From an uncultured Rhodobacterales bacterium (lineage in GTDB: Bacteria > Pseudomonadota > Alphaproteobacteria > Puniceispirillales > GCA-002684695), in assembly GCA_964571065.1 (NCBI GenBank), contig CAZNBI010000001.1:1-41780 (forward strand): DNA of 41,780 nucleotides. The letters are read 5' to 3'. Under the pieces are notes generated by a model that saw nothing but the letters and a program-made list of their open reading frames with translations, did not search any database and was not told the origin of the DNA. This document shows positions 21,492 to 41,780 of this stretch, piece after piece (within the stretch, counting starts at the first letter, position 1; each line of letters starts with the position of its first letter). Both the position numbers and the translations under genes were made by a program.

Positions 21492-22939
21492 TTCGTCCAA
21501 GGCAATGAAAAAGTTTTAACATTAGTAAAGCATTTCATTGCTTCCTGAACACCTTCTTTAATACCATTTCCAGAATCTTTAATACCCCCAAAAGGAGACA
21601 TTTCAATTCTGTATCCAGGAACCTCCCAGATATTTACTGTACCAACATCTAAACCAGAAATATATTTTTGAATTCTAAAAAAATTATTTGAACAAACACC
21701 TGCAGATAAACCGTAATTAGTAGAGTTGGAAATTTTTATAGTTTCATCATCATTATCAGGCACTCTAACAATTGGAATAATGGGCCCAAAAGTTTCTTCT
21801 ACAACGAGTTCAGATTTATAGTTAACATTATCAACAACTATGGGTGGAAGTAGAGCACCCTTCCTCTCAGGATGATATAAGATATTAGCTCCGTCTTCGG
21901 CAGATTTTATAACACGATTTTCAAATATCTCTGCAGCATTACTACTAATGACTGTTCCTAAATCAGTTTTATTATTCATGGGATCGCCAAATTTTATTTG
22001 TTTTGCCTTTTCAAGAATAATAGGCACTAATTTGTCAGCAACCTTATTTTGCACCAAAATTCTTTTAACGGCAGTGCATCTTTGTCCAGAATTCTTTGTA
22101 GCTCCACTTACAGCTAACTCAGCTGCTTTATCAAGATCATCTTCAGTTAAGTCATTTAAAACTATCAAGGGATCATTCCCACCAAGTTCTAAAACTTGGC
22201 GCTTATAGCCGGCTTTATTTGCAATAATTTTTCCAACAGGAATCCCACCTGTAAAAGTAATTAGTTCTATATTTGGATTTGTAATAATTTCATTACCTAT
22301 TTCTTCTGGAAGCCCAGTTACTACAGAAAGCATTTCTGGTGGAAGTCCAGCCTCGTAAATTATATCCGCAAGATAAATTGCAGTTAAGGGTGTCAGCTCT
22401 GTTGGTTTAGCTACTATACAATTATTTGTTGCGATTGCAGGTGCTATTTTGTGAGAAATCATATTCAAAGGATGATTAAATGGTGTAATAGCTGAAATAG
22501 ATCGAAGCGGTTCTCTAATTGTAAAAATTTTTCTTGCTTTTCCATGCGGTGTTAAATCACAACTAAATATCTCTCCGTCATCTTGTATGCATAGTTGACC
22601 TGCAAGAGTATAAACATCATAGGCACGTCCTATTTCATACAAAGAGTCATTAATCGAAATACCAAGTTCAGAAGTAATGATTGGAGCTAACTCATCTTTT
22701 CGTTTTTTGATGATTTCTGCAATTTTAAAGAGAATTTGCTGGCGTTCATATCTTGATAGTTTTGATTTATAATTAGCTGCAATTGAAAAAGCTTTTTGAA
22801 CGTTTTCTACTGTTGCAGCTGGAACACTTCCAACAATTTCTTCTGTAAAAGGATACAAGACACTAATTTCGTTTTCAGAGAAAACTGTCTTCCCTGCTAT
22901 TCGCATTCCTTCATTTTTAATAGTAAATTGTTTTTTCAT
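21488..22939 (-). CDS. phnY: Phosphonoacetaldehyde dehydrogenase (aldehyde dehydrogenase family)
   Basis: 483 aa. ALDH motifs ELGGNDP and catalytic Cys (GQRCTAVKR) are present. [10 protein letters not shown] and YEIGRAYDV match my recollection of the PhnY-type subfamily. It is the last gene of a phnW-phnA-phnY operon. Confidence 0.75.
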
Positions 22940-22954
22940 AAAATTTTCACTTCT

Positions 22955-24196
22955 CTAATTAAAGGACGCTTCACATGCATAAAAGAATGCATCATAATTT
23001 TTCAAATCCTTAACCGAACTTAAATTAATTGGTTTATTAACTATAAACGGTACTTTTTGCTCGCTAAGACCCCCATGCGATCTCAAGGGTTCTTTAAGTG
23101 ATTTAAGATCATGATAACTTTTGGTTTTACCTAATGTTATTTTCTCACTTGATGTGATAACAATATCACCTATTCTATCTGACGGTAGGTCAAACCTCTT
23201 TACTGCCTCATCTTTAGAACATATCTGATCAATTCCTTTTAAAGACTTTAATTTTGAAAAAGCTTCGTTATATATTCTTTTCTCATTAAAATAAATAGTA
23301 GCATAGGAACCTAATGCACCATGATGTACAACGTATGGATCTGTTATCGGAAGAATTACATTTGTGCTATTAGTGCCAAATTCTTCATCTAAAAAGTCTT
23401 GAATAAAAACAATTTGTGGATCTCCATTTTTATTGTGCTTTGCGCTCATACCATGATCTGCAGTAATAACCATAGTTACATCAAATTTACTTATTTCTGA
23501 TAAATAATTATCAATCATAGTTAAAAATTTTATAGCCTCTTTATCTTCTGGAGCATATTTGTGTTGTATATAATCAGTAGTTGAAAGATACATTACATCA
23601 GGAAACCATTCTTCTAATAATTTAAGGCCACTAGCAAATACAAATTCAGAGAGTTCTGAGGAATAGACATCTGGAATTGACATATTTAACCATCTTTCTA
23701 CATTATCGATACCATTAGTTTCAAGTGTGGCACTATTAGCTTTTTCTGATGAAAAACACTTTGTATTTAATTCATTAATTGTAAGACCCGCCCCAAGTAA
23801 AGCTCTTAATTTGTCTTTTGCTGTGATAATTCCAATTTTTTTATTTATTTCTTGAAAACTTTTAAATATTGTCGGCGCTCTCAAAAACTTTACGTCATTC
23901 ATCATAACCTCTTGCCCACTGTCTGGATCTAGAAGATAATTGCCGCAAATACCGTGTACAGAAGGAGGGCAACCAGTTACAATTGACATGTTATTAGGAT
24001 TTGTAAATGAAGGAATAACGGAATCAGCAATATTATAAGAACCAATTTCCATAAAATTTTCAATTGTAGGTATGCAATTTTTTTGAAGAGCAATATCTAA
24101 ATATTCAGGATCACAACCATCAATACATATTACAACTATAGGTTTTAGCGGAACCTTATACTGTCTTTTATTTATATTTATATATGTATTTTTCAT
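22955..24196 (-). CDS. phnA: Phosphonoacetate hydrolase (alkaline phosphatase superfamily)
   Basis: 413 aa. Metal-site motifs VVICIDGCDPEYL and TADHGMS are present, with NPP-type architecture. It lies between phnW and phnY. This is not the unrelated small E. coli PhnA. Confidence 0.8.
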   Translation of the reverse strand: MKNTYININKRQYKVPLKPIVVICIDGCDPEYLDIALQKNCIPTIENFMEIGSYNIADSVIPSFTNPNNMSIVTGCPPSVHGICGNYLLDPDSGQEVMMNDVKFLRAPTIFKSFQEINKKIGIITAKDKLRALLGAGLTINELNTKCFSSEKANSATLETNGIDNVERWLNMSIPDVYSSELSEFVFASGLKLLEEWFPDVMYLSTTDYIQHKYAPEDKEAIKFLTMIDNYLSEISKFDVTMVITADHGMSAKHNKNGDPQIVFIQDFLDEEFGTNSTNVILPITDPYVVHHGALGSYATIYFNEKRIYNEAFSKLKSLKGIDQICSKDEAVKRFDLPSDRIGDIVITSSEKITLGKTKSYHDLKSLKEPLRSHGGLSEQKVPFIVNKPINLSSVKDLKNYDAFFYACEASFN

Positions 24197-24218
24197 AGAT
24201 TTATTAAAATAATTATTT

Positions 24219-25406
24219 TTAAAAACTATTTAATTTTTCCCTTTCAGCAATTATTGCATTTTTAGGAATAGCTGATTTTACATTCATCTCTGAAAGTGAA
24301 ACTTTAACAGCTTTTAAAACCTTTCTCATTATGTTGTTATCAATTTGGCCAATACAACCTATCCTAAAAGTATCAGCAACAGTAAGTTTACCAGGATATA
24401 TTATAAAATTTTGATTTTTCATTAAATTATAAAAGATTTCAAAATTAAAATTTTCATCAGCTGGATATAAAAAAGATACAATTATAGGAGAAATCCATTT
24501 GTCAGATAACAATGTTTCAAAGCCTAAATCTCTCATTCCTTCAACAAGAATATTTTTATTTGCCTCGTAGCGATTTAATCTTCCTATAACACCGCCTTCA
24601 GATGCGTGTTGATTCAAAGCAGATAAAAAACCTAAAATAGTATGTGTTGGCGGAGTAAATCTCCACTGGCCTTTTTCCTCCATATATTTCCATTGGTCAT
24701 ATAGATCAAGAGATAAAGAATGACTATTATTTTTTGATTTTTCTAAAACTGATTTTTTAGTTAAAACAAAACCAAAACCAGGAACACCTTCAATACATTT
24801 ATTTGCAGAAGAAACAAGAGCATCAAATTCAATTTCAGCACAATCTATTGGAATTGCTCCAAAAGCTGACATACTGTCAATAAGTAATGACCTATTAAAA
24901 GATTTTACTATTTTTGATATTGTTTTTATTGGATTCAAAATACCTGAACTAGTTTCACAATGAATTACAATAACGTGGCTAATATATGGGTCTTGCCCTA
25001 ATTTTTTTTCAAGTAGCTCAGGGTCAGGTGGTAAAAAATCCCCCATATCAATAATATCATTCTCTCTTCCTAAATAATTCAAAATTGTTGAGCATCTTTT
25101 TCCATAAGAACCATTACTTAAAACCAAAGCTTTATTTTTTTTTGGCACAAAAGTACCTAACATTGCCTCTACAGAAAAAGTTCCACTTCCTTGCATTGGT
25201 ATTGAAATATATGAGTCTGAATTTTTGATCTTATTTATATTTGAAGTTTGCATTAATATATTGACTAATTTTTCTCTTATTTCGGAAGTAATTTTCTTAA
25301 AATCACTATCCCAAGATCCAATATCCTTTAACATTGCTTCTTTTGTAAGTTTTGAGGTAGTTAATGGACCAGGTGTAAGAAGATATTTATCTAAGTTTTT
25401 AGTCAT
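24219..25406 (-). CDS. phnW: 2-aminoethylphosphonate--pyruvate transaminase
   Basis: 395 aa. Has the N-terminal LLTPGPLTTS and the PLP-lysine context SSANKCIEGVPGFGF, both hallmark PhnW strings. Confidence 0.9.
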   Translation of the reverse strand: MTKNLDKYLLTPGPLTTSKLTKEAMLKDIGSWDSDFKKITSEIREKLVNILMQTSNINKIKNSDSYISIPMQGSGTFSVEAMLGTFVPKKNKALVLSNGSYGKRCSTILNYLGRENDIIDMGDFLPPDPELLEKKLGQDPYISHVIVIHCETSSGILNPIKTISKIVKSFNRSLLIDSMSAFGAIPIDCAEIEFDALVSSANKCIEGVPGFGFVLTKKSVLEKSKNNSHSLSLDLYDQWKYMEEKGQWRFTPPTHTILGFLSALNQHASEGGVIGRLNRYEANKNILVEGMRDLGFETLLSDKWISPIIVSFLYPADENFNFEIFYNLMKNQNFIIYPGKLTVADTFRIGCIGQIDNNIMRKVLKAVKVSLSEMNVKSAIPKNAIIAEREKLNSF

Positions 25407-25589
25407 AAAATTTCAGTTAAAAACAATATTTGCATTAAAAATTTTCAAAAGATAACATAAATTTATTACAAAATTTAGATTTTTTCTATTACCATATCAA
25501 AAATCATAATTTAAAATTTTGTAAGTTTTTTATTGTAATTTAATGCAGTTATGTTCACACTTAAATAAATTATGAATGGGAGGAAACTA
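25407..25589. promoter_or_regulatory. Divergent control region between phnW and the ABC importer (largest intergenic spacer in the window)
   Basis: A 183-nt AT-rich spacer between divergently transcribed operons, so both promoters must lie here. GGAGG sits 5 nt before the ATG at 25590. I could not confidently assign a -35/-10 pair or an operator. Confidence 0.35.
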
Positions 25590-26759
25590 ATGAGTAAAAT
25601 TAAAAACTCTTCACACCAAACACTTAAGGCTGTGAAGACCTTTAACCGAAGAACACTCCTTAAAAGAGGCGCAGCACTTACAGCTTTTGCAAGTGTAGCA
25701 CCTTTATACGTTAAAAATGCTTTCGCTGCTACCAGTGGGCAGGTTAACGTTTTAATGTGGGGTGAATATTTACCTGATTCTGTTATTGCTGATTTTAAAG
25801 CAAAAACAGGTATCACCGTCAACCATACAAAAATTGGTGATAATGGTGAAATTATAGCAAAAATGAAAGCTGGCGGCGGAGCTGGATACGATCTTGCTAG
25901 TCCAACAAACATGAGAGCACTTCAATGGGAAAATCTAGGTGTTTTAGCGCCATTTGATATGAACAAAATCTCAAATCTAGGAAATGTTAATCCTGGAATG
26001 GTTGCTGTTGGAGAAAGAGACTGGAACTTTGGAGGAAAAGGTTCTCATTGGGTACCACAACTTTGGGGTACTGAATCTATTTCTTGGAGAACTGATAAGT
26101 GGACACCTGATGGTCTTCCAAGCTTTGGGGACATTTGGGAACCAAATCCTGGTATTGACGGAGCTTTCATGATGGGAAGAACATATTCCATGATGACTGG
26201 ATGTGGTATTTGGATGCATCACCAAGGAAAAATGGATTTTTGGTCATCTTACAAAGACGAAGATACAATGAGGAAGAATTGGCAAACAATAACTGATTAT
26301 TGTATCTCTAAGAAAGCAAATCTTGTTAAGTTTTGGTCAGGTGCAGACCCACAAAAACAAGGTTTCACTTCAGATGGTGTGGTTGTTGGACAAACTTGGG
26401 ATGGCCCAATTGTATCAATGATGAAAGCTGGGGAACCAGTTGCATATCAAACAACAGATGAAGGAGCACTGGCATGGGTTGATGGTATTACATTATCAGC
26501 TAAAGCTGAAAATATTGATGAGGCTTATGAATTAATCAACTATAGTTTCACTCCTGAAGTTGGAGGGATGACTATTAATGAAATTGGTTATAATTCTGCT
26601 GTTATTGGTGCTTCGGATTTTTATTCAGATGCAACCAAGGCAATTTCACAAGCTGTTTACCCAGGCGATACAGCATCTAAGTTAAACCCATGGCCACCAG
26701 AACCACCATGGTATGCAGACGCTAGAGCTGAATATGCTAATAAGTTTGAAACAGCATAG
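25590..26759 (+). CDS. ABC transporter periplasmic substrate-binding protein, PotD/PotF/PhnS family (probable 2-aminoethylphosphonate or similar small amine)
   Basis: The ORF-track start is 25572. The ATG at 25590 has GGAGG at optimal spacing. The N-terminus has a twin-arginine-like signal (FNRRTLLKRGAALTAFASVAPLYVKNAFA|A). The mature part is a Trp/Gly-rich SBP_bac_1/PotD-like fold. Gene order SBP-ATPase-permease-permease matches phnSTUV. Confidence 0.8.
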   Translation: MSKIKNSSHQTLKAVKTFNRRTLLKRGAALTAFASVAPLYVKNAFAATSGQVNVLMWGEYLPDSVIADFKAKTGITVNHTKIGDNGEIIAKMKAGGGAGYDLASPTNMRALQWENLGVLAPFDMNKISNLGNVNPGMVAVGERDWNFGGKGSHWVPQLWGTESISWRTDKWTPDGLPSFGDIWEPNPGIDGAFMMGRTYSMMTGCGIWMHHQGKMDFWSSYKDEDTMRKNWQTITDYCISKKANLVKFWSGADPQKQGFTSDGVVVGQTWDGPIVSMMKAGEPVAYQTTDEGALAWVDGITLSAKAENIDEAYELINYSFTPEVGGMTINEIGYNSAVIGASDFYSDATKAISQAVYPGDTASKLNPWPPEPPWYADARAEYANKFETA

Positions 26760-26779
26760 ATAGTTTGAAAATTTTAATT

Positions 26780-26808
26780 AAAAGCGCTCATTTTGGGCGC
26801 TTTTTTTT
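26780..26808 (+). terminator. Rho-independent terminator/attenuator between the SBP and ATPase genes
   Basis: AAAAGCGC (26780-26787), a 9-nt loop TCATTTTGG, then GCGCTTTT followed by more T (T8 run at 26801-26808). It starts 21 nt after the SBP stop codon. Confidence 0.7.
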
Positions 26809-26854
26809 ATAGTTTTTGAAATTATATTTGGTAAAGTAATTTTGGGGGAAAATT

Positions 26855-27964
26855 ATGAGTGCTGACGTCGAACTTCAAAATATTTCTGTTACTTTTGGAA
26901 ATTTTTATGCCGCAAAAAATGTGAATGTGAAGATTAACGAAGGTGAATTTTTTAGTTTTTTAGGTCCCTCAGGATGTGGAAAAACCACAATACTTCGAGC
27001 CATATCGGGTTTTCTTGATCCTTCAGAAGGAAAAGTTTTAATTGGCGGCAAAGATATGGGAGGTATAGGCCCTAATAAAAGACCAACCTCACTAATTTTT
27101 CAAAACCTTGCTTTATTTCCGTTAATGTCAGTGGCAGAAAATATAGCATTTTCACTTGAAGTAAGAGGTGTTGATAAAATTGAAAGAAGAAAAAGGGCAG
27201 ACGAATTATTAGAACTTATAGCATTATCTGGCCAAGGTGATAAAAAAGTTCATGAGTTATCAGGAGGACAAAAACAAAGAGTAGCAATAGCTAGAGCATT
27301 AGCTATAGAGCCACAAGTTTTACTTTTAGATGAGCCACTATCTGCTTTAGATTTAAAATTACGTCAAAAAATGAGAACTGAGCTAAGGGCTATTCAAAAA
27401 AGTGTTGGGATCACTTTTATTTATATAACTCATGATCAAGGTGAGGCTCTAACAATGTCTGATAGAGTAGCTGTTATGAACGAGGGAGAATTAGAACAAG
27501 TTGGACAAAGTAATGATGTCTATAATTTTCCTCAAACACCATTTGTAGCTACTTTTGTAGGGGAAAATAATGCTTTTCACTGCAAAGTTATTTCAACTGA
27601 AAAAGATTTTGTGAAAGTAGATTTTGATGGCGTACATTTTTTTGCAAAAGCAGGTAGTGATAATAAAAAAAACCATAACTTCAAAAAGGGTCAAGAAGTA
27701 ATTTTATTTATAAGACCAGAATCAATTTTTATTAGAGATAAGTCGAATAAATTTGAAAATAATTTTTCAGCAAAACTAAAAACAATAGAGTTTGAGGGCA
27801 ATTTAAAAAATATATACTTAAATCTTAACTCAAAAATGGATGTCAGATTTAGCGTTCCAAATGCAGTTGATACGAGTAATCTTTCTTTAAATAAAGAAGT
27901 TGATTTAACTTTCTCTTCTAGTAAAGCAGTTGTTCTTCCAAGTGGTCCATTAGCAGTCGATTAA
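26855..27964 (+). CDS. ABC transporter ATP-binding protein (PotA/PhnT type)
   Basis: 369 aa. Has Walker A GPSGCGKTT, the Q-loop, the signature LSGGQKQRVAIARAL, Walker B LLLDEPLSALD and the H-loop ITHDQ. The C-terminal ~120 aa form a TOBE-like regulatory domain. Confidence 0.9.
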   Translation: MSADVELQNISVTFGNFYAAKNVNVKINEGEFFSFLGPSGCGKTTILRAISGFLDPSEGKVLIGGKDMGGIGPNKRPTSLIFQNLALFPLMSVAENIAFSLEVRGVDKIERRKRADELLELIALSGQGDKKVHELSGGQKQRVAIARALAIEPQVLLLDEPLSALDLKLRQKMRTELRAIQKSVGITFIYITHDQGEALTMSDRVAVMNEGELEQVGQSNDVYNFPQTPFVATFVGENNAFHCKVISTEKDFVKVDFDGVHFFAKAGSDNKKNHNFKKGQEVILFIRPESIFIRDKSNKFENNFSAKLKTIEFEGNLKNIYLNLNSKMDVRFSVPNAVDTSNLSLNKEVDLTFSSSKAVVLPSGPLAVD

Positions 27965-27973
27965 AGTAAAAGA

Positions 27974-28885
27974 ATGAAATATTTTTTTGATAAAAACGGC
28001 CCTCTTATTTCAACTTATTTTTTGATTTCAATATTATTTTGGATAGTTTTTTTAATTATAATTCCCCAATTATATATGTTGGATTTGTCCTTCAGGCCGA
28101 ATTTACCGCCATTGCTAAGAGGTGGTCCTGATGATGTGCATACTTTAGTACATTATAAACATTTTATTTTTGGTTCTGAAACGAGCCAGGATAAATTTAA
28201 TTATGTTGATATTGGAGTATTCTTTAATACCATATTTACAGCTATTTTGGTAACAGTAATTAATCTGTGTTTCTGTTATCCTATAGCATTTTATATGGCA
28301 AAAGTAGCCAACCCAAGTACTTCTCGCTTACTAATTATATCCCTTATAATTCCATTTTGGATCAATGAGCTGTTACGCTCATTTGCATTAAGGATTTTAT
28401 TTGCAGGAGAAGGAGTAATAAATAATGTCCTATTAGGTACAGGCCTAATAGATACAGGTATTAACTTTATTGCTCAAGATGTTGCATTATATACAGGTCT
28501 TACCTATGCATATATCCTACTAATGATATTCCCTCTATATAATGCAATTGAAAGTTTAGATTCTAATCAACTTGAAGCTGCAAAAGATTTAGGATCATCT
28601 ACAATTAGGACACATTGGAGAATTGTTATCCCCCACGCAAAAGCTGGAATTGCATCTGGTTGTACGATGGTTTTTATGCTTACGGCAGGGGCATTAGCCA
28701 CTCCAGTAGTCTTAAGTAGTCCTAATACTTACTGGTTTACTCAGCTTATTTATCAATGGTTTAATATGAATGATAATTGGTCTAGAGGCTCAGCATACTC
28801 AATTTTATTACTAACAATTTCGGTAACATTTGTATTGCTAATGATGAGAATATTCAAAGTTAAAATAGGTGAGATAATCAGATGA
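27974..28885 (+). CDS. ABC transporter permease (PotB/PhnU type)
   Basis: 303 aa, multi-span, with the EAA loop (LEAAKDLGSSTIRTHWRIVIPHAK). Its stop overlaps the next start (ATGA at 28882-28885). Confidence 0.85.
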   Translation: MKYFFDKNGPLISTYFLISILFWIVFLIIIPQLYMLDLSFRPNLPPLLRGGPDDVHTLVHYKHFIFGSETSQDKFNYVDIGVFFNTIFTAILVTVINLCFCYPIAFYMAKVANPSTSRLLIISLIIPFWINELLRSFALRILFAGEGVINNVLLGTGLIDTGINFIAQDVALYTGLTYAYILLMIFPLYNAIESLDSNQLEAAKDLGSSTIRTHWRIVIPHAKAGIASGCTMVFMLTAGALATPVVLSSPNTYWFTQLIYQWFNMNDNWSRGSAYSILLLTISVTFVLLMMRIFKVKIGEIIR

Positions 28886-30111
28886 AGTCTGGTCATTTAA
28901 TGAATGCCTTACTAGGAATATATATTTTTATATTTTTTACATATTTATTTGGCCCACTTCTAATAATGAGTGTAACAGCTTTTAACTCTGCTGAGTTTCC
29001 TTCAATTACTCCTTGGGAATGTTTTAGCTGGAGATGGTTTAATGAAGGCAAAATTGCTTACGATGGACAAAAGCTTGCTGGTCTTGCGACCGACTGGAGG
29101 CTTCATGATGGTTTTATTTCAAGTCTCATTATTGGCATTGGTGTTGTCATTTTGTCAGTACCTATTGGACTTGCTGCATCAATAGTTTTAACTCAAGTAC
29201 ACAGTAGATTAAGAACAATTTTTTACTCTATATCGATTATGCCTGTTCTATTTCCTGGAGTTATTATAGGTATTTCTACCGTTGTGCTTTGGGATAGAAT
29301 AGCGACGATCGGTGGAGAGGGTTTTATATCTGATTTGGGGCGTAATGGAATTTTTCTAACAATTCTTGGTCAAACATGTTTTATTTCAACATACTGCTTT
29401 CTTATATTTGTTGCAAGATTACAAAGATTTGATCAAACCCAAGAGGAGGCAGCACTTGATCTGGGTGCAACACAAACACAAGTATTTTTTAAAATACTAA
29501 TTCCTTACTTAATGCCAGCTATTGCTTCTTCAGCAGTTATTGCATTCTTAGCTTCTTTTGAGAATTATAATACTACTGTTTTTAGTATTCTATCAGATCA
29601 AACATTGACTACTGTTATAGCTTCAAAGGTTCGACTTGGAATCAGTCCGGCTATTAGTGCTTTAGCGCTTGTAATTATTTTATTAACTCTAATGTTGGCA
29701 ATTGCCTATGAAGTCATAAGAAGAAGAGAAGATAAAAAGAAAGAAGAAAGACAAAATAGATTATTGTTTGAGGAAACTAAAGATAGCAGACTAAAAAAAC
29801 ATAATAAAAAAACTTTTAAATTACCTCGGTCAATATTTTTATTTTTATTGATAATTGTTTTAGGAGGCTTTGGATTGAACGAATTAGCTAAAAATGGTTT
29901 GTATGGAAATGAATGTGTAAAAGCAGCTGAAACAGCTAAAAAATCAAAATTTTCAGACCAATTAAAATTACTTCAGCAAAACGTTAATACTGTTGATGAA
30001 AATACACTTAAAGGAGGCACTTTGGGTGGAACCAATGATTATAATAATATTTTTGCTGATCCTAATCTATTCAAAAACTTTGGAGGTTTTGATAACAAAA
30101 CTGAAAAGTAA
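28882..30111 (+). CDS. ABC transporter permease (PotC/PhnV type) with a ~130-aa C-terminal extension
   Basis: 409 aa. The core is about residues 1-275 with the EAA loop EEAALDLGATQTQVFFKILIPY. A charged linker follows (RRREDKKKEERQNR), then one extra predicted TM helix (SIFLFLLIIVLGGFGL) and a ~75-aa hydrophilic tail. Confidence 0.85.
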   Translation: MKSGHLMNALLGIYIFIFFTYLFGPLLIMSVTAFNSAEFPSITPWECFSWRWFNEGKIAYDGQKLAGLATDWRLHDGFISSLIIGIGVVILSVPIGLAASIVLTQVHSRLRTIFYSISIMPVLFPGVIIGISTVVLWDRIATIGGEGFISDLGRNGIFLTILGQTCFISTYCFLIFVARLQRFDQTQEEAALDLGATQTQVFFKILIPYLMPAIASSAVIAFLASFENYNTTVFSILSDQTLTTVIASKVRLGISPAISALALVIILLTLMLAIAYEVIRRREDKKKEERQNRLLFEETKDSRLKKHNKKTFKLPRSIFLFLLIIVLGGFGLNELAKNGLYGNECVKAAETAKKSKFSDQLKLLQQNVNTVDENTLKGGTLGGTNDYNNIFADPNLFKNFGGFDNKTEK

Positions 30112-35292: not shown

Positions 35293-36489
35293 CTAATTTT
35301 GGACTTTTTGAAGCTCTTCAATAATTATTTTGGAAATAATATTACAGTCTTGAACAGTGAATGTAAGTGGTATCCTCATATCAAAGGTTTTAGCTAAAAT
35401 TCTAAGTGTGTTTGCTAGTCTCGGAATATTATCTAAATATTTCCAACTATCATAACGGCTTGTATAAGCTACGGGCTTTTCATCACCAAACCATTTTAAA
35501 TCAACACCACGAGCTTTACAATTATTTATAAAAGACTTTATTTGTTCATTATTTAGACTATCAATTCTAAATTGAATTGATGAACCAACGAAATATTCAT
35601 CACTATCTCTATTAGGGAAAAAAATACCATTTTGTTTTTTTAGATTGTCGTTTAATACGTTATATAATTTATTCCATTGTGTAACTTTTTTATCTAATTC
35701 TTCTAATTGTGGAATAAGAATAGAAGATCTGAGGTTATCCATCCTGCCAGAAAAATTTGCTGTTTCTAGTTTAACTTGATCAAAAATATTTTCACTAGGA
35801 GAAGAAGCGTGCCTTCCATATAGCATGTATGATCCAGAATGAATTATTGCTTTTGCAATAATTTCATCATTATCAGTTGTAAGAAACCCCCCCTCACCAG
35901 AATTTATATGTTTATATGTTTGAGTAGAAAAAGCTGAGACCACCCCAAAGTTTCCTGATCTTTTGCCAGCCCACTTTGCTCCCATAGTATGAGCGCAGTC
36001 TTCAATTATTTTAATATTGAGTGAATTACAAAGGTTTACAAGTTTACTCATATTAGTCATATGACCTCGCATATGAGACAGAAGTAGAAACTTTGACCCT
36101 GAAGACTTGGCTTTTAATTCTAAATCATTAAGGTCTATATGAAAATTATCATTAATATCTATCAGTACAGCTTTAGCTCCAACATTTTCAATAGCTCCAG
36201 GTACAGGCGCAAGTGTAAAAGCATTTGCAAGAACTTTATCACCCGGCTTCACACCCGATGAACGCAAAGCAAGTTGTATTGCAACTCCTCCAGAAGTGCA
36301 TGCTAGGCAATATTTAGCCCCCTGCCATTTAGAGAACAAAACCTCAAGTTGACTTGTAATTGAAATTTCACCTTCATCTGTATTGTACCTATGCAATTTT
36401 CCTGAATTCATTACAGAAATTGCATTTTCAATACCCATAATTGGTATTGCCTCTTGTTGAGTAAACGATTTTTTAAATTTCAATTCCAA
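35293..36489 (-). CDS. DegT/DnrJ/EryC1/StrS-family PLP-dependent aminotransferase
   Basis: 398 aa. The PLP-lysine context is AFSTQTYKHINSGEGGFL. The upstream CTSGGVAIQLAL and EDCAHTMGA motifs are typical of the family. Confidence 0.8.
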   Translation of the reverse strand: MELKFKKSFTQQEAIPIMGIENAISVMNSGKLHRYNTDEGEISITSQLEVLFSKWQGAKYCLACTSGGVAIQLALRSSGVKPGDKVLANAFTLAPVPGAIENVGAKAVLIDINDNFHIDLNDLELKAKSSGSKFLLLSHMRGHMTNMSKLVNLCNSLNIKIIEDCAHTMGAKWAGKRSGNFGVVSAFSTQTYKHINSGEGGFLTTDNDEIIAKAIIHSGSYMLYGRHASSPSENIFDQVKLETANFSGRMDNLRSSILIPQLEELDKKVTQWNKLYNVLNDNLKKQNGIFFPNRDSDEYFVGSSIQFRIDSLNNEQIKSFINNCKARGVDLKWFGDEKPVAYTSRYDSWKYLDNIPRLANTLRILAKTFDMRIPLTFTVQDCNIISKIIIEELQKVQN

Positions 36490-36494
36490 TTTAA

Positions 36495-37688
36495 CTAATT
36501 ATTCTTCTTTAATTCATTAATTTGATCATCAAGATGTTTTTTAATCATATTTTTTAGATCATTTTCAAACCATTTGTTCAATGTGGGAAGCAATAGTTTT
36601 TCTATTTCAACTTTTATATTCTCTTTTATCTGGTTTTCCTTAATTAAATCAATTTTGATATCTTGTTTTAATAATTTACTATCTAAATCGGTTAAGTTTT
36701 CATTTGTAGAATTATTGTCAGTCATTTTTGTTGTTTCATGTGTGTTTTCATTCCAACCTATTTCCTTGATAATATTATTAAGTTTCTTTCTTTTCCACAA
36801 CTCATAAAATGTAAGCATTGCAATAGCAGACATCACAATCCCACCACCGTATAATGTATTTATTGCAGGCACCTCTCCAACAAAGTACCAAACCCAAAGT
36901 GGGCCTAGCGTAAATTCAAGCAACATAAATAAAGTAATTTCTGCAGCCAGCAAGTGGCGCGTTGCAATAATAAAAATTGCATGTGCAAAACCATTTAACA
37001 CTCCACCCCAAATAAAAGATAAAATAATATCATTATCAGATATGTTTATATCATTTCCTTTTATGATAATTCCTACTAGACCAATTATTAATGCTGGTAC
37101 AATTAATGTAGGCAACATATCGATATGCCTATTTTTTCTCAAAATTACAGGAAAACAAGAAAAGCAAAGCAAAGTAAGAATTGCCATTAAATTTCCAAAT
37201 GCGCTGCCACTGCTGATACCTTCGTAAACCATGATGACTATCCCAATAGCAGCAAATGCCATCATAATAATAGTTGGTAATTTTATAGTTTCTTTGATAA
37301 ATAAATAAGCTATTAAAGCGGTCACAAATGGAACTGAACTTAGTATAAACAGAACATTTGCTACAGTAGTGTTATCTAGTGCATGCATATAAAAAATTTG
37401 CGCGCTACCCAAAAATACTCCTGCTATAATTCCCCATCTTCCGATAGCAAAAATTTGTTTGAAAATTTTCGTTCTATATTTAAAAAAAAGAATTAGAATT
37501 AAGGCAGAAATCCATGAAACTGATCTATAAATATTAATCTGCCAAATGTCAGCACTTTCCATGTTTCTAAAAAGTAGAGGGCCTATACTTATGGTAATGC
37601 AACATATTATCATTAGGAACATTCCCAATCCTCTTCTGGGAGTTTGTTGCAGATTTTTATCTATTATTTTTTGAGTTTTACTATTCAA
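36495..37688 (-). CDS. EamA/DMT-superfamily transporter with a ~100-aa hydrophilic C-terminal tail
   Basis: 397 aa. About 10 predicted TM helices lie in residues ~20-295 (two EamA-like halves). A K/N/E/D-rich tail follows with heptad-like repeats (KQDIKIDLIKENQIKENIKVEIEKLL). Confidence 0.75.
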   Translation of the reverse strand: MNSKTQKIIDKNLQQTPRRGLGMFLMIICCITISIGPLLFRNMESADIWQINIYRSVSWISALILILFFKYRTKIFKQIFAIGRWGIIAGVFLGSAQIFYMHALDNTTVANVLFILSSVPFVTALIAYLFIKETIKLPTIIMMAFAAIGIVIMVYEGISSGSAFGNLMAILTLLCFSCFPVILRKNRHIDMLPTLIVPALIIGLVGIIIKGNDINISDNDIILSFIWGGVLNGFAHAIFIIATRHLLAAEITLFMLLEFTLGPLWVWYFVGEVPAINTLYGGGIVMSAIAMLTFYELWKRKKLNNIIKEIGWNENTHETTKMTDNNSTNENLTDLDSKLLKQDIKIDLIKENQIKENIKVEIEKLLLPTLNKWFENDLKNMIKKHLDDQINELKKNN

Positions 37689-37706
37689 TTAAAACGCCTT
37701 AAATAA

Positions 37707-38468
37707 TCAAAACTTTGATATCGCAGTTATTGCCAGCCTTATACCAGTAATCAAAAATAGAAACCATATTATCTTATAAAAATTTTGCGGTGATAAAAAA
37801 TTCCTTAAAAAAGAACCTAAATAAAAACCAAGAAAAGCGCTTAAAGTTCCAAACAATGCAGGCAAAAGCATGTAGGATTGTAGCACTCCAGATAGTAAAA
37901 AACCAGTTCCAACAGATATACAACCAATAAAGATAAATAATCCATTTCCTGCAACAAATTGGTTTGGTTTTAAATTTTTCATAGAAAGATAGAGAACTCC
38001 CACAACCCCTAAAATAGATGTCAATCCTCCTACAATACCAGACAAAATACCAAAAAATAGTTGCCATTGTTTGTCGAAAATTTCTGAAATTATAAGCCTT
38101 TTGCTGAATATATTATTTAAGCTAAATAAAATAACTACCGTGGCTAAAATTGTCATTAAAGCTCGATCACCCAGTAAAACAACAAGAAAAGAAATTAGGA
38201 AGCCCACAATTATTGAAGAGATAACAAAAATTCTATATTTATTGATTATTGGAATTGGATTACCAGTTTGAAAAACCTGAAAAAAACTTACCAAAAAAAT
38301 TGGTATTATATTAAGACCTATTGCTTCTAATGGAGGGATAAAAACTGATAATAAAGCAATGCCAATGGCAGGCAAACCCATGCCAAATAATCCTTGAATT
38401 ATGCCAGCTACAAAAAATACAGCCGCCATTAAAACATATAATTGATGATCTAAAGAAATTATTTCCAT
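37707..38468 (-). CDS. TauE/SafE (TSUP) family anion permease, putative sulfite/organosulfonate exporter
   Basis: 253 aa with 7-8 hydrophobic spans. Gly-rich TSUP-like repeats (GLFGMGLPAIG and GIVGGLTSILG) occur in the two halves. Confidence 0.7.
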   Translation of the reverse strand: MEIISLDHQLYVLMAAVFFVAGIIQGLFGMGLPAIGIALLSVFIPPLEAIGLNIIPIFLVSFFQVFQTGNPIPIINKYRIFVISSIIVGFLISFLVVLLGDRALMTILATVVILFSLNNIFSKRLIISEIFDKQWQLFFGILSGIVGGLTSILGVVGVLYLSMKNLKPNQFVAGNGLFIFIGCISVGTGFLLSGVLQSYMLLPALFGTLSAFLGFYLGSFLRNFLSPQNFYKIIWFLFLITGIRLAITAISKF

Positions 38469-38575
38469 TTTCCTATTATAGATTATAGTAAATATTATGT
38501 GAGATAATTCATAATAATTGATCTCAACGGATTAACAATTATAGCATTTTTAATTTTATAGATAGGATATAGTTT
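38469..38575. promoter_or_regulatory. Divergent control region between the TauE-family permease operon and the tauD operon, with repeated TTATAG hexamers and an imperfect palindrome
   Basis: TTATAG occurs at 38476, 38483, 38539 and 38556. GAGATAATT-N6-AATTGATCTC spans 38501-38525. AGGA lies 8 nt upstream of the tauD ATG. Confidence 0.35.
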
Positions 38576-39412
38576 ATGATTGAAAGACCTTCCGGTATTA
38601 AAATTGAGAAATTTTCTCCTACACTTGGAGCAATAATTACTGGTGTAGATTTGTCTCAAAAAATTAGTGATGCACAATTTAATGATATAAATCAAGCATT
38701 TCTAGATTACCAAGTATTATTTTTCAAAGATCAAAAAGAAATACCACCTGAATTGCATATTGAATTTGGTAAGAAGTTTGGAGAACTTCATAGTCATCCT
38801 GCTGCACCAACCATGGAAGGTTATCCAGAAATTTTTGAAATTCACGCACATAAAGATAGCAAAATAGCAAATGGGGAATTTTGGCACTCTGATGTATCTT
38901 GTGACAAAGAACCTCCTCTTGGAACCATGTTACAATTGCATATATTACCTGAAACAGGTGGCGATACTATGTTTTCAAATATGTATGCTGCTTATGATGA
39001 ATTAAGTAATAAATATAAAGAAATACTAGACGGACTAATAGCCATTCATGAATCTGAACATATATACAAAGGAAGATATAGCGATAGAGGTGTAAGTGAG
39101 GATAAAATTGAAACTCCTACTGCAAAGCATCCTTTAATCAGAACACATCCCGAAACAGGTAAAAAGGCTATATACGTAAATAGAACTTTTACAACAGGCA
39201 TTGATGGAATGAGCAAAGAAGAGAGTTCTTCTATTTTAAATTTTTTATTCAACCACTGTGAGCATGTTAACTATCAAATAAGATACCGATGGTCTTTAAA
39301 TGATATGGCCTTTTGGGATAATAGATGCGCGATGCATAGAGCAATTTGGGACTATTGGCCAAATGAAAGGAAAGGAAGAAGAGTTACCATTAAAGGCGAT
39401 ATTCCAAAATAA
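38576..39412 (+). CDS. tauD: Taurine/sulfonate dioxygenase, alpha-ketoglutarate-dependent (TauD/TfdA family)
   Basis: 278 aa. The H-x-D iron motif is in FWHSDVSCDKEPPLGTML, followed by TGGDTMFSNMYAAYDEL. HPLIRTHPETGKKAIYVN, FLFNH...YRWSLNDMAFWDNRCAMHRA and the C-terminal RV-TI track E. coli TauD closely, as far as I recall its sequence. Confidence 0.85.
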   Translation: MIERPSGIKIEKFSPTLGAIITGVDLSQKISDAQFNDINQAFLDYQVLFFKDQKEIPPELHIEFGKKFGELHSHPAAPTMEGYPEIFEIHAHKDSKIANGEFWHSDVSCDKEPPLGTMLQLHILPETGGDTMFSNMYAAYDELSNKYKEILDGLIAIHESEHIYKGRYSDRGVSEDKIETPTAKHPLIRTHPETGKKAIYVNRTFTTGIDGMSKEESSSILNFLFNHCEHVNYQIRYRWSLNDMAFWDNRCAMHRAIWDYWPNERKGRRVTIKGDIPK

Positions 39413-39423
39413 GCAAACAATTA

Positions 39424-41016
39424 ATGAAAACATCACACCTTATTGTTAATACACTTTTAAAAGCTGGAATAGATAAAATTTTCTCTCTTTCAGGCAACCA
39501 AATTATGCCAGTCTATGATGCTGTGATTGATAAAAAAATAGACATCATTCATTGCAGGCATGAAGCTGCTGCGGTCTTTATGGCTGATGGTTATGCTCAA
39601 ACTTCTGGAAAAATAGGGATAGCATTAGTTACTGCAGCTCCTGGTTTTACGAATGCGCTTGGTCCACTATATGCAATAAAAGCAAATCAATCGCCAATTT
39701 TACTTTTATCTGGTGATAGTCCGTTATCTCAAGATGGACTAATGGCATTTCAAGAGTTGAACCAGTATGAAATAATTAGAGAACTTGTAAAGAAAAGTAA
39801 GAAAATTAATCAATTAAATGAAATAGAAAATAATATTTATGAAGCAATTGATTTAGCAAGATCGGGTAGACCTGGGCCTGTTCATTTGTCTTTACCATTT
39901 GATATCTTAAATGAAACAATTTCTAAGAATAACACTTCTATTTCTACTAAAGATAAAAAAACTGATCCTCAATTAGCTTCATCAACTTTAAAAAAAATTA
40001 ATGATATAATTAATGCAAGTGAAACTCCTTTGGTTATCACAGGCCCATCTCTATCTGAAGCAAGGAATAAAATTTTGTACCAAAAACTTAATAAATTTAT
40101 TAAGGTACCAATAATAAATATGAGCAGCCCAAGGGGAAGTAATGACCCATCATTAGGAAATTTAAAGACAATCCTTACAGAGGCTGATCTTATTATAACC
40201 ATAAATAAAGACATAGACTTCACACTTGGATATGGTTCAAAAGAGAGAGTTTCATCAGATAAATTTATTTTTGTTGATTATGAGAACGGTCCAATCAATC
40301 ACGCAAAAAAAATTTTAAAAGAGAGATTGTTACTTGAGGTAAGAGCTAATCCCTCACAAATTTTATCAAAGCTAGCAGATATGAATTTTTTAAATGATTA
40401 CACAACATGGATCAATCGGATTAAATTTTTATCAACGCAAAGACCTGAAAAACCCAAATCTATAAATAAAATTACCCCTTATGAGTTATGCAATTCTGTT
40501 GTATCGGAAGCAGAAAATTTTTCAAATGTAATATATATTTCAGATGGTGGTGAATTTGGTCAGTGGGCACAATCAATTATTCCAAAGTCAAAAGCCATTA
40601 CAAATGGACCTTCAGGGGCAATAGGTGGCTCAATACCCCAAGCAATAGGTGCATCCTTTGCAAACCCAGATGCAATTGTGGTTTGTTTTCTTGGTGACGG
40701 GACTGCAGGTTTCCAAATAGCAGACTGGGAGACCGCACGAAGGTATAAACTTCCTATTATATATATAATTGGTAATGATCATAGATGGGGAGCCGAAGTA
40801 GAAATACAAATTAAAGATTATGGGGAAGATAGAGCAAAGTATTGCATGCTAGATGAGGAAACTAATTATGCCAATGTAGCATCTGGTTTAGGATGCAAGG
40901 GATTTAAAGTGAGTTCAATAAAAGAACTAAAAAAAATAATTAAAGCAGTTTTTTCATCAAAAGAAACTACAATTATTGATGTGAATATTGAAGGTCTTCC
41001 TGGACCAACTTTATAA
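39424..41016 (+). CDS. Thiamine-diphosphate enzyme, three-domain ALS / oxalyl-CoA decarboxylase / Xsc superfamily; substrate unknown
   Basis: 530 aa. The Pyr domain contains HCRHEAAAVFMADGYAQTSGKIGIALVTAAPGFTN (catalytic Glu context). A central domain follows, then a PP domain with the ThDP motif GDGTAGFQIADWETARRYKLPIIYIIGNDHRWG. Confidence 0.8.
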   Translation: MKTSHLIVNTLLKAGIDKIFSLSGNQIMPVYDAVIDKKIDIIHCRHEAAAVFMADGYAQTSGKIGIALVTAAPGFTNALGPLYAIKANQSPILLLSGDSPLSQDGLMAFQELNQYEIIRELVKKSKKINQLNEIENNIYEAIDLARSGRPGPVHLSLPFDILNETISKNNTSISTKDKKTDPQLASSTLKKINDIINASETPLVITGPSLSEARNKILYQKLNKFIKVPIINMSSPRGSNDPSLGNLKTILTEADLIITINKDIDFTLGYGSKERVSSDKFIFVDYENGPINHAKKILKERLLLEVRANPSQILSKLADMNFLNDYTTWINRIKFLSTQRPEKPKSINKITPYELCNSVVSEAENFSNVIYISDGGEFGQWAQSIIPKSKAITNGPSGAIGGSIPQAIGASFANPDAIVVCFLGDGTAGFQIADWETARRYKLPIIYIIGNDHRWGAEVEIQIKDYGEDRAKYCMLDEETNYANVASGLGCKGFKVSSIKELKKIIKAVFSSKETTIIDVNIEGLPGPTL

Positions 41017-41035
41017 TTTTATCTGAGGCAATCAA

Positions 41036-41780
41036 TTGACTGAAGAAAATAAAAATATACCCTTAGTTGGATATGCAAACAGATTATCTGTTAGGCCGAA
41101 AGAGACAATAAGTTTCAAAGTATCATCAGAACTAAAATCTAATTATTCGGTAGATTTATATAGGTCTATTTCAGCAGATCCAAATCCAGAAGGCATTGGA
41201 ATAAAAGAAGAAAAAGTAGATAACTATTTTTCTTCAAGATTAATAAAATCAAGAGTACAAAAACATTTTCCTGGTTCATATGCACGTTCCCAGAAACAAT
41301 TAAACCTTGATGTAGAAAATGGATTAAAAATCAGTATAAATTTTTTCAGCACACTTAAAAATAACAAATCACAGACACTAATTTCAATTGGACATTTATC
41401 TATATATATAAATGAAAATTATCAACTTTCTTGCAGTTATTTAGATAAGAAAATTTCTATCTCAAAACCAATTAAAACAAGGAAATGGATTAAAGCTGAA
41501 TTAGAGTTAGACTACCTTGAAAACACTTTGAAACTTCTTCAAAATTACATTGATGAGAGCAATGCCGAGCTTTCCAGAAAAATTGATATTGAAGTGCCTA
41601 TTAAAAAAAATATAGTTAGTAATTTAGTCATATCGGCGAAAGAAAAAGACAACAAGATTGAAAACTTTTTTAATGGCAAAATAGAAGACCCAGAAATTTC
41701 CACTTTATTTACAGAGAGGAAATACGAAAAATTTCTAGAATGGGATTTTTCAGATCAAATACCATCTTCTTGGGTTAGAG
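41036..41780 (+). CDS. N,N-dimethylformamidase large-subunit-like (DmfA2-like) protein, N-terminal 248 codons; runs off the right edge (TTG start)
   Basis: Absent from the ORF track. The frame is open from 41027 to the window end with no in-frame ATG. TTG at 41036 has GAGG 7 nt upstream. The translation IPLVGYANRLSVRPKETISFKVSS...LYRSISADPNPEGIGIKEEKV...FPGSYA...FFNGKIEDPEI...EWDFSDQI parallels the N-terminus of DMFase large subunits as I recall it (I.GY.DR.SV..GETI.F.VS; GDSNP.GPGYKEE; YNGK.D.P.I; HWDFS). Confidence 0.55.
   Translation, partial: MTEENKNIPLVGYANRLSVRPKETISFKVSSELKSNYSVDLYRSISADPNPEGIGIKEEKVDNYFSSRLIKSRVQKHFPGSYARSQKQLNLDVENGLKISINFFSTLKNNKSQTLISIGHLSIYINENYQLSCSYLDKKISISKPIKTRKWIKAELELDYLENTLKLLQNYIDESNAELSRKIDIEVPIKKNIVSNLVISAKEKDNKIENFFNGKIEDPEISTLFTERKYEKFLEWDFSDQIPSSWVR

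Follow-up and report, generated by a model that had tools for sequence, protein, structure and literature searches.

Two tightly packed gene sets diverge from a short spacer at the right-hand end of the window analysed here (41,780 nucleotides, nt; contig CAZNBI010000001.1 of an uncultured alphaproteobacterium). Do they make up one pathway and, if so, for which compound? The leftward set encodes a TauE/SafE-type permease (TauE1), an EamA-type permease and a DegT-family aminotransferase; the rightward set encodes a TauD-family dioxygenase, a thiamine diphosphate (ThDP)-dependent enzyme and the beginning of an amidohydrolase of the DMFA2 family. The first-pass annotation had taken these six genes for a unit without a characterised counterpart and had proposed, as a speculative hypothesis, that it serves the deacylation and desulfonation of an N-acyl or N-alkyl aminosulfonate such as a substituted taurine. 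Their linkage proved real, the neighbours being kept in seven divergent versions of the locus. The cluster is restricted to one narrow low-GC clade of marine SAR116 bacteria, in which a smaller core survives. This fixed core consists of DegT-EamA on one strand and, on the other, the ThDP enzyme, the DMFA2 amidohydrolase, a second TauE-type permease (TauE2) and an aldehyde dehydrogenase (Aldedh). The cluster in the window may tentatively be read as the left-hand part of a larger catabolic locus, composite in structure and confined to this clade, that would break down an anionic N-acyl amine, which might be a sulfonate; to this reading we give close to an even chance.

The restriction to SAR116 emerged from several kinds of search. 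When a single genome for each GTDB species was scanned, the closest match, and the sole close one, was a SAR116 single-cell genome (98% identity), and the next-best ThDP homolog was only 44% identical. An identical ThDP protein was indexed in 71 assembly-collection blocks; of the contigs with this protein, the 23 longest were examined, and all are marine or TARA metagenome sequences. Metagenome scans and look-ups yielded seven sequence-divergent versions of the locus, all with 31–33% GC, close to the value of about 31% that holds along the entire window. The arrangement EamA / ThDP–DMFA2–TauE2(–Aldedh) is retained in the seven variants, as is DegT wherever the contig extends that far. EamA is a core member, present in every variant including L013, where TauE1 and TauD are missing and EamA lies directly upstream of the ThDP gene. 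TauD immediately precedes the ThDP gene in the six other variants. The short-chain dehydrogenase/reductase (SDR) that follows the amidase is missing from L095 and L097 and split in L013.

The rightward operon is truncated by the window, and its full extent was read on L001, a 102-kb contig, as TauD–ThDP–PF20254 (the complete amidase, 713 amino acids, aa)–SDR–TauE2–Aldedh. The six-gene unit had thus been drawn too small, omitting SDR, TauE2 and Aldedh and possibly two further genes, for an enolase-superfamily (MR_MLE) protein and a sulfatase, that lie beyond DegT. It was also too inclusive, TauD and TauE1 being dispensable within the clade. Protein identities between the variants and the window type are collected in Table 1. 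The ThDP gene is the fastest-evolving in the cluster. The values form a gradient from 57% to 88% rather than two classes, so that rate covariation is only suggestive as a signal of a co-evolving module.

Beyond the low-GC SAR116 clade, the genome and metagenome scans found no instance of the six-gene unit, and its expected synteny in other genomes fails there. Among 154 other loci with a ThDP homolog of 35–44% identity, a DMFA2 gene was a neighbour once (24% identity), a TauD-family gene three times, EamA twice and DegT never; ThDP homologs elsewhere adjoin TauE in 34 loci and sulfatases in 3. As the first-pass annotation had supposed, no characterised pathway that combines these genes emerged from the literature searched (DMFase/sulfonate/TauD, SAR116 sulfonate, N-acetyltaurine amidohydrolase, beta-phenylalanine acylase, SAR11 tauD, and sulfopropanoate/homotaurine with thiamine). 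Taken singly, the proteins are new members of known families, and it is their combination that is absent from that literature; no evidence of a new mechanism was found in the cluster.

Table 1. Features of the locus and of related loci. Coordinates refer to the window unless preceded by an L number; bit scores are given against the model cut-off; the last column is the mean identity of the variants to the window type.
Feature	Coordinates	Strand	Domains and remarks	Mean identity
DegT/DnrJ/EryC1-family pyridoxal phosphate (PLP) aminotransferase, 398 aa	35293..36489	-	PF01041, E = 5e-53	72% (range 66-75%)
EamA/DMT permease, 397 aa	36495..37688	-	PF00892, two stretches, E = 2e-16	67%
TauE1, PF01925 (TauE/SafE-type) anion permease	37707..38468	-	PF01925, E = 1e-20	70%
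Divergent intergenic spacer, 107 nt	38469..38575	.	between TauE1 and TauD	
TauD-family Fe(II)/2-oxoglutarate dioxygenase, 278 aa	38576..39412	+	PF02668, E = 3.5e-65	86%
ThDP-dependent enzyme, 530 aa	39424..41016	+	PF02776, E = 1e-34; PF02775, E = 5e-27	57% (range between variants 53-63%)
DMFA2-family Fe-dependent amidohydrolase, N-terminal 248 codons of 713 aa	41036..41780	+	TTG start; window end truncates gene	66%
Full amidase gene	L001:11613-13754		rightward operon; PF20254 on record	
Extended SDR, 293 aa	L001, 3' of amidase		rightward operon	78%
TauE2, second PF01925 permease, 251 aa	L001, 3' of SDR		rightward operon; PF01925 on record	65%
Aldedh, 481 aa	L001, 3' of TauE2		rightward operon	86%
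Cytoplasmic formylglycine-type sulfatase, 507 aa	33753..35276	+	PF00884, PF16347; convergent with DegT; possible member	88% (range 84-91%)
Enolase-superfamily (MR_MLE) protein, 373 aa	32591..33712	+	PF13378, PF02746; 5' of sulfatase; possible member	66%
CaiB-type CoA-transferase			in window, upstream of DegT	68%
Acyl-CoA dehydrogenase (ACAD)			in window, upstream of DegT	82%
PanB-like protein	L001:16940-18723 (with next)			71%
HIBADH (YihU-like dehydrogenase)	L001:16940-18723 (with previous)			73%
Genuine Xsc, 591 aa	17663-19438		TIGR03457, 913 bits vs 676.4	
Pta, PTA_PTB family	ends 20319		after Xsc, opposite strand, 2 nt away; TIGR00651, 210 bits vs 311	
Citrate-synthase-family gene	20358-21491		between pta and phnY	
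PhnY, PhnA, PhnW	21488-25406		all above NCBIfam cut-offs	
PotD-like ABC importer	25572–30111		follows PhnYAW	
DctPQM-DMFA2 operons	L180:6143-11118, L181:6127-11118, L182, L183, L011:297-6513		L011 also with LysR regulator	
LysR-TauE-MR_MLE/TctCBA-ThDP cluster	L034:503-11614 (Pelagibius sp. Alg239-R121); also L029, L038, L055, L090, L126, L147			
Aldedh (57%)-LysR / ThDP / PF01425 amidase	L130:7376-13027 (also L131, L133)			
GntR-sulfatase (47%) / TctC-ThDP / sulfatase-TctC / LysR	L105:6131-15282 (also L106, L107)			

The layout itself carries less information than its compactness suggests. A check of open reading frames (ORFs) over the window recovered all six genes at the coordinates and strands first reported, and the gaps of 18, 5, 107, 11 and 19 nt hold for the longest ORFs. 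The gene caller applied to this lineage chose shorter DegT and EamA starts, giving gaps of 56 and 84 nt, and the other variants favour the long forms. The window is 94% coding, with median gaps of 18 nt between same-strand, 2 nt between convergent and 107 nt between divergent genes. Since the gaps of the six genes match these medians, spacing alone is uninformative on co-function, and an operon inferred from tight spacing was rejected. Promoter-like and terminator-like sites were no commoner in a scan of the window than in shuffled sequence. The divergent spacer likewise has the median length, and in a six-variant alignment only a -10-like box and the region of the ribosome-binding site and start codon are conserved; that alignment revealed no operator or riboswitch, and the spacer had no Rfam match.

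The family assignments held for all six genes, through Pfam for five and through matches to characterised enzymes for the sixth, the amidase, whose in-window fragment has no Pfam match. Over its first ~100 residues this fragment matches N-acetyl-(R)-beta-phenylalanine acylase (E = 5e-9) and the large subunit of dimethylformamidase (DMFase; E = 1e-5), and for the full 713-aa protein the values become E = 5e-155 with the acylase 8i5a and E = 4e-109 with the DMFase 6lvb. Compared with the acylase (8i5a/8huy) and DmfA2 (6lvb), the protein is of the same family, matching over residues ~230-712 and in an N-terminal domain. In DMFase, the Fe(III) ligands are Y399, Y440 and E521, and H519 is catalytic (PMC7686228). 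The cluster amidase retains all four residues and belongs to PF20254 by its domain, its two-Tyr-one-Glu Fe(III) site and its catalytic His. The HPEY motif was present in all eight amidase homologs checked and GLSTY in seven, L181 being off-pattern. Like the acylase, the amidase is a single chain without a small subunit, and about half of the residues differ between the two; no ORF for a 15-kDa DMFase small subunit lies between the ThDP and amidase genes or directly 3' of the amidase. With no such gene alongside, the name dimethylformamidase proper was rejected. DMFase acts on a synthetic solvent and the acylase on an aromatic beta-amino acid derivative, neither of which is expected in the open ocean. 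The gene of the SAR116 amidase sits in an operon with a ThDP enzyme, whereas its SAR11 orthologs come after a TRAP importer. Short DMFA2 calls in two independent TARA scaffolds were considered as natural disruptions and rejected, both being artefacts of 100-N scaffold gaps inside the N-terminal region of the amidase (L003:11659-11758, L008:12190-12289); that assemblies break in this gene may reflect population microdiversity at that region.

The distribution of this amidase reaches far beyond the cluster. Its 90%-identity cluster holds 623 sequences, and homologs at 52–57% identity are widespread. In Pelagibacter (26-29% GC) and in L011, an ortholog of 53-55% identity closes a DctP–DctQ–DctM–amidase operon in which stop and start codons overlap, and the DctP proteins so linked are 65–84% identical to each other. 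The coupling of these SAR11 orthologs to TRAP importers makes an imported organic anion, in this case an anionic amide, the probable substrate; and an anionic N-acyl substrate is plausible, given that a beta-acetamido acid is what the nearest characterised enzyme hydrolyses. That part of the earlier proposal, an N-acyl compound as substrate, therefore stands as plausible for the amidase, and the TauD-centred desulfonation of taurine attached to it was found unsupported. The SAR11 DctPQM-amidase operon looks like a widespread marine unit for uptake and deacylation that is annotated only as "N,N-dimethylformamidase".

The ThDP enzyme belongs to the POX/ALS-like superfamily, with its Pyr and PP domains and both motifs, CRHE (residue 44, the cofactor-activating Glu) and GDG-X24-ND (residue 424), conserved in seven of seven variants. 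The central domain PF00205 reaches 20.3 bits against a cut-off of 30.4. Among solved structures the best matches are 2-hydroxyacyl-CoA lyase (HACL, 1e-47), acetolactate synthase (ALS, 3e-47) and benzaldehyde lyase (1e-45), followed by weaker ones to oxalyl-CoA decarboxylase (3e-35) and glyoxylate carboligase (9e-29). The enzyme falls below every NCBIfam cut-off: Xsc (NF005713, 184 bits in two stretches vs 620; the cut-off of TIGR03457 is 676.4), HACL and oxalyl-CoA decarboxylase (NF058623, 218.7 vs 600; NF006721, 179 vs 557) and ALS (TIGR00118, 248.6 vs 538). The kinship with Xsc that had been noted at first does not extend beyond the superfamily, the protein being 22% identical to the genuine Xsc of the same window, 60 residues shorter, degenerate in its central domain and without an adjacent pta, so an identity with Xsc was rejected. 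In HACL and oxalyl-CoA decarboxylase, a lid formed by the C-terminus folds over the CoA substrate, and the alignment to HACL 7pt1 stops at residue 561 of 612, the end of the query, where the C-terminal region of HACL starts. Identities with HACL/oxalyl-CoA decarboxylase and with ALS were also rejected, on model scores together with the missing lid in the former and the lack of an intact FAD-binding PF00205 domain in the latter. Judged by its sequence, the enzyme is a member of a distinct subfamily on the ALS/HACL/benzaldehyde-lyase branch, named here after the signature SGNQIMP, which is common to a large group of homologs at 36–44% identity.

Among solved structures, DegT comes closest to glutamine:2-deoxy-scyllo-inosose aminotransferase (2c7t, E = 5e-31). 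Its Schiff-base residue is Lys193, in the motif KHINSGEGG, which the six variants examined all share; a lysine in this position sets true aminotransferases apart from dehydratases of the His type. DegT reaches no NCBIfam equivalog cut-off. Aldedh is closest to the alpha-ketoglutaric semialdehyde dehydrogenase (KGSADH) 5x5t of Azospirillum (E = 1e-174), followed by succinic semialdehyde dehydrogenases (SSADH), enzymes of a type that oxidises aldehydes bearing a distal anion. The SDR has weak GalE-type matches only. EamA ends in a charged, low-complexity C-terminal tail of ~100 residues (window 36495-36820), whose last ~35 residues (…EVEKLLxPSLNxWxDxNLKK…) are conserved in six of six variants, and whose linker is not.

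TauD had been called bona fide-looking, and most of its active site agrees with that description. It matches E. coli TauD (1gqw) with E = 5e-62, shares with it and with the alkylsulfatase AtsK the fold and the iron, 2-oxoglutarate and sulfonate/sulfate sites, and in the alignment keeps the Fe ligands H99/D101/H255, the 2-oxoglutarate ligand R266, the sulfonate ligands H70, V102 (backbone) and R270, and also N95 and F206. The H70/V102/R270 triad binds sulfate esters in AtsK too and does not discriminate between them and sulfonates. Unlike in E. coli TauD, Y73 is replaced by Ala, S158 aligns to Ile beside a 3-aa deletion, so that the S158/F159 region forms an altered, shortened loop, and the score of 270.5 bits lies below the equivalog cut-off of NF007104 (313). 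In E. coli TauD, residues Y73, N95 and S158 bind the taurine amine. The deviations are common to the entire marine clade of this protein, for which taurine may not be the substrate, as the two changed contacts suggest. Thousands of marine-metagenome proteins are 79–81% identical to it, and in SAR11-like contigs (28–30% GC) such orthologs occur in the arrangement HAD / TauD–PhyH / SDR / SDR, without TauE, ThDP enzyme or amidase. This unit stands twice in tandem in L174:7224-15718 and L177, the second copy being partly decayed, and L175 has the same arrangement. Absence from L013 and occurrence in foreign contexts mark TauD/TauE1 as an optional, self-contained module, not the centre of the pathway. 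TauE1 and TauE2 are barely alignable (35% over 49 aa); both are members of PF01925, and no NCBIfam model matched either copy. In published work, SAR11 tauD is treated as a gene of organic-sulfur assimilation, and SAR116 metagenome-assembled genomes carry tauD, xsc, comDE and 9-10 tauE genes.

Relatives of the ThDP enzyme keep company elsewhere that helps to define the functional set. In L130, L131 and L133, a ThDP homolog lies beside a 57% homolog of the cluster Aldedh, and the flanking gene of L130, the one locus in which it was scanned, encodes an amidase of a different family, PF01425. The strongest indication that ThDP enzyme, amide hydrolysis and Aldedh work together comes from such non-orthologous repeats. 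MR_MLE homologs (38-42%) accompany ThDP homologs and TauE in 27 other loci, and a 47% homolog of the sulfatase flanks the ThDP homolog in the unrelated L105 and L106, whereas L107 has only a 22% sulfatase. Given this recurrence beside ThDP homologs in unrelated loci, the sulfatase and the MR_MLE protein may belong to the set. About 50 further loci share one architecture, LysR–TauE–MR_MLE divergent from TctC-TctB-TctA–ThDP, with a soluble FrdA/TfrA-like flavoprotein and a two-subunit Fe-S hydro-lyase of the TtdAB/fumarase type; no description of this cluster was found in the literature searched. Widespread in alphaproteobacteria, it has in common with the SAR116 locus the SGNQIMP-type ThDP enzyme (40-44%), the MR_MLE protein (38-42%) and a PF01925 permease, but it has no amidase, DegT, EamA or TauD, and a TTT importer, the flavoprotein and the hydro-lyase instead. 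The compound that it breaks down might be a tartrate-type acid or a C4-dicarboxylate-like sulfonate.

With gene content, catalytic residues and linkage read directly from the DNA, the chemical steps and the substrate may be proposed as follows. One or more of the permeases would import an anionic N-acyl amine, probably a beta- or omega-acetamido sulfonate or carboxylate of the N-acetyltaurine or N-acetyl-beta-alanine type. The amidase would remove the acyl group, DegT would turn the freed amine into a carbonyl compound, the ThDP enzyme would decarboxylate or cleave this to an aldehyde, Aldedh would oxidise the aldehyde, with its distal anionic group, to an acid, and sulfite or a sulfo-acid would leave through a PF01925 permease. 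TauE1/TauD would be an optional module, inserted between EamA and the ThDP gene, for oxygenolytic release of sulfite from a non-taurine sulfonate and its export, and the SDR would likewise be optional. A sulfur context is given by Xsc-Pta in the window, a YihU-like gene downstream and, within the cluster itself, a sulfatase and the two PF01925 permeases.

Two known systems resemble this scheme. The DoeB-DoeD-DoeC route of ectoine degradation and the conversion of 4-acetamidobutanoate through GABA to succinate each combine a deacetylase, an aminotransferase and a semialdehyde dehydrogenase, and the SAR116 cluster, with its SSADH-like Aldedh, would proceed in like manner, with amide hydrolysis followed by transamination and then by oxidation of the aldehyde; its enzymes come from other families (DMFA2 amidase, DegT), and an extra ThDP enzyme is always present. 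In the Tpa-Xsc-Pta pathway, an amine is converted to a carbonyl compound that undergoes ThDP-dependent cleavage. The SAR116 cluster likewise pairs an enzyme of the Xsc superfamily with PF01925 permeases.

Several observations weigh against a common pathway of this kind. No protein of the cluster attains an NCBIfam equivalog cut-off; the ThDP enzyme is equidistant from HACL, ALS and benzaldehyde lyase, so that its reaction cannot be named; the nearest relatives of DegT use keto-sugars and inososes, not small amino acids; and PF01925 is a broad permease family in which sulfite export would be a matter of annotation only. The SAR11 amidase orthologs have no ThDP, DegT or Aldedh partner, and a TRAP transporter further downstream of the SAR116 cluster was rejected as importer for the amidase, its DctP being 34–35% identical to the amidase-linked DctPs. 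The variants are, moreover, fairly close relatives, with flanking enzymes 80-91% identical, and shared gene order therefore partly reflects mere common descent; CaiB-ACAD, probably unrelated to the pathway, is just as syntenic. This last point also speaks for the view that there is no common pathway, and that independent units (TauE1/TauD, DegT-EamA, ThDP-amidase-TauE2-Aldedh, MR_MLE-sulfatase and CaiB-ACAD) stand side by side in a streamlined genome and are passed on jointly by descent. Even between unrelated or convergent genes, the window normally shows gaps of 5-19 nt, the indels of TauD/TauE1, SDR and PhnWAY-ABC indicate a modular region, and the partner genes are not found together outside the clade. 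Such a patchwork is nevertheless rather unlikely in our estimate, as an unrelated lineage repeats the ThDP-amidase-Aldedh trio with an amidase that is not homologous, ThDP, MR_MLE and TauE recur together in dozens of genomes, a sulfatase homolog flanks the ThDP homolog in L105 and L106, and EamA stays beside the ThDP gene after the loss of TauD and TauE1.

An obligatory six-gene unit centred on TauD, in which an N-acyl or N-alkyl taurine is imported, deacylated and desulfonated by TauD, sulfite leaves via TauE and the C2 product passes to the ThDP enzyme and the aminotransferase, could draw on the position of TauD directly 5' of the ThDP gene in most variants. By analogy, N-acetyltaurine would be the sulfonate counterpart of the beta-acetamido acid cleaved by the nearest relative of the amidase, and it has been reported in the literature as a phytoplankton exometabolite. 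A named N-acetyltaurine amidohydrolase, NaaS (SPO0658), is on record from Ruegeria pomeroyi. We consider this unit improbable all the same: the operon of L013 is otherwise intact without TauD and TauE1, the dioxygenase has lost Y73 and S158 and scores below its equivalog cut-off, TauD orthologs of ~80% identity occur without any partner gene, taurine carbon can already be handled by the Xsc-Pta that the genome encodes, and no role is left for SDR, TauE2 and Aldedh. A Weimberg-type route for a sulfated or N-acetylated sugar acid, with sulfatase and amidase stripping the substituents, SDR, the MR_MLE dehydratase and DegT acting on the skeleton and a KGSADH-like dehydrogenase yielding 2-oxoglutarate, would explain why the best NCBIfam matches of MR_MLE are sugar-acid dehydratases (far below their cut-offs), why Aldedh is nearest to the Azospirillum enzyme, why DegT and the extended SDR come from sugar-modifying families and why the sulfatase has an SGSH_C domain. 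It seems very improbable, since the cluster has no kinase, aldolase, lactonase or glycosidase, the SDR is dispensable, the ThDP enzyme is left without a role, the SAR11 amidase orthologs occur only with a TRAP importer, and the closest structure to MR_MLE is uncharacterised. Biosynthesis and export of an aminated, possibly sulfonated metabolite or surface component, with DegT, SDR and the ThDP enzyme as synthases and EamA and TauE as exporters, is barely credible: DegT, extended SDRs and EamA exporters are typical of biosynthetic loci, but no glycosyltransferase, nucleotidyltransferase, ligase or sulfotransferase lies in the cluster, amidase, sulfatase and aldehyde dehydrogenase are degradative, and the neighbours (Xsc-Pta, PhnWAY, CaiB-ACAD) are catabolic.

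The catabolism of an anionic N-acyl amine, which we prefer, can be extended into a bolder proposal, unlikely as it stands. The SGNQIMP ThDP enzymes would be unrecognised organosulfur lyases that, together with amidase, DegT and Aldedh, form a new route for the degradation of an abundant marine N-acyl aminosulfonate (N-acetyltaurine, N-acyl-cysteinolic acid or N-acyl-homotaurine), with the SAR11 TRAP-DMFA2 operon as its minimal version. In the surface ocean, few bacterial groups are more abundant than SAR116 and SAR11, and organosulfonates and N-acyl amines from phytoplankton are a large and poorly mapped part of their intake of carbon, nitrogen and sulfur. If the amidase family does use a natural marine amide, the SAR11 TRAP-amidase operon would mark a quantitatively important uptake route presently hidden by the annotation "N,N-dimethylformamidase". 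In the same vein, surveys tally the marine "tauD" as taurine dioxygenase, a protein that has lost two taurine-amine contacts and moves between genomic contexts.

The surroundings of the cluster place it at the edge of a region of organosulfur and organophosphorus catabolism. The genuine Xsc–Pta pair lies 20 kb upstream, PhnY, PhnA and PhnW constitute the 2-aminoethylphosphonate route, and the PotD-like importer stands behind them. The whole PhnWAY-ABC block is missing from L184, where Pta and CaiB are direct neighbours, and is thus an indel that distinguishes close lineages. CaiB and ACAD are probably part of a glutarate route. Nearer to DegT, the sulfatase has a CMPAR motif, no signal peptide and an SGSH_C domain; solved structures provide no function for the MR_MLE protein, whose closest entry, 3ddm (E = 7e-100), is itself uncharacterised. 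On L001, just past the position at which the window ends, a PanB-like gene and a beta-hydroxyacid dehydrogenase gene are convergent with the rightward operon, are followed by the TRAP transporter mentioned above, and are kept in four variants. The PanB-family protein is divergent (114 bits vs a cut-off of 272), and the dehydrogenase narrowly passes the cut-off for the sulfolactaldehyde 3-reductase YihU (351.5 vs 348 bits).

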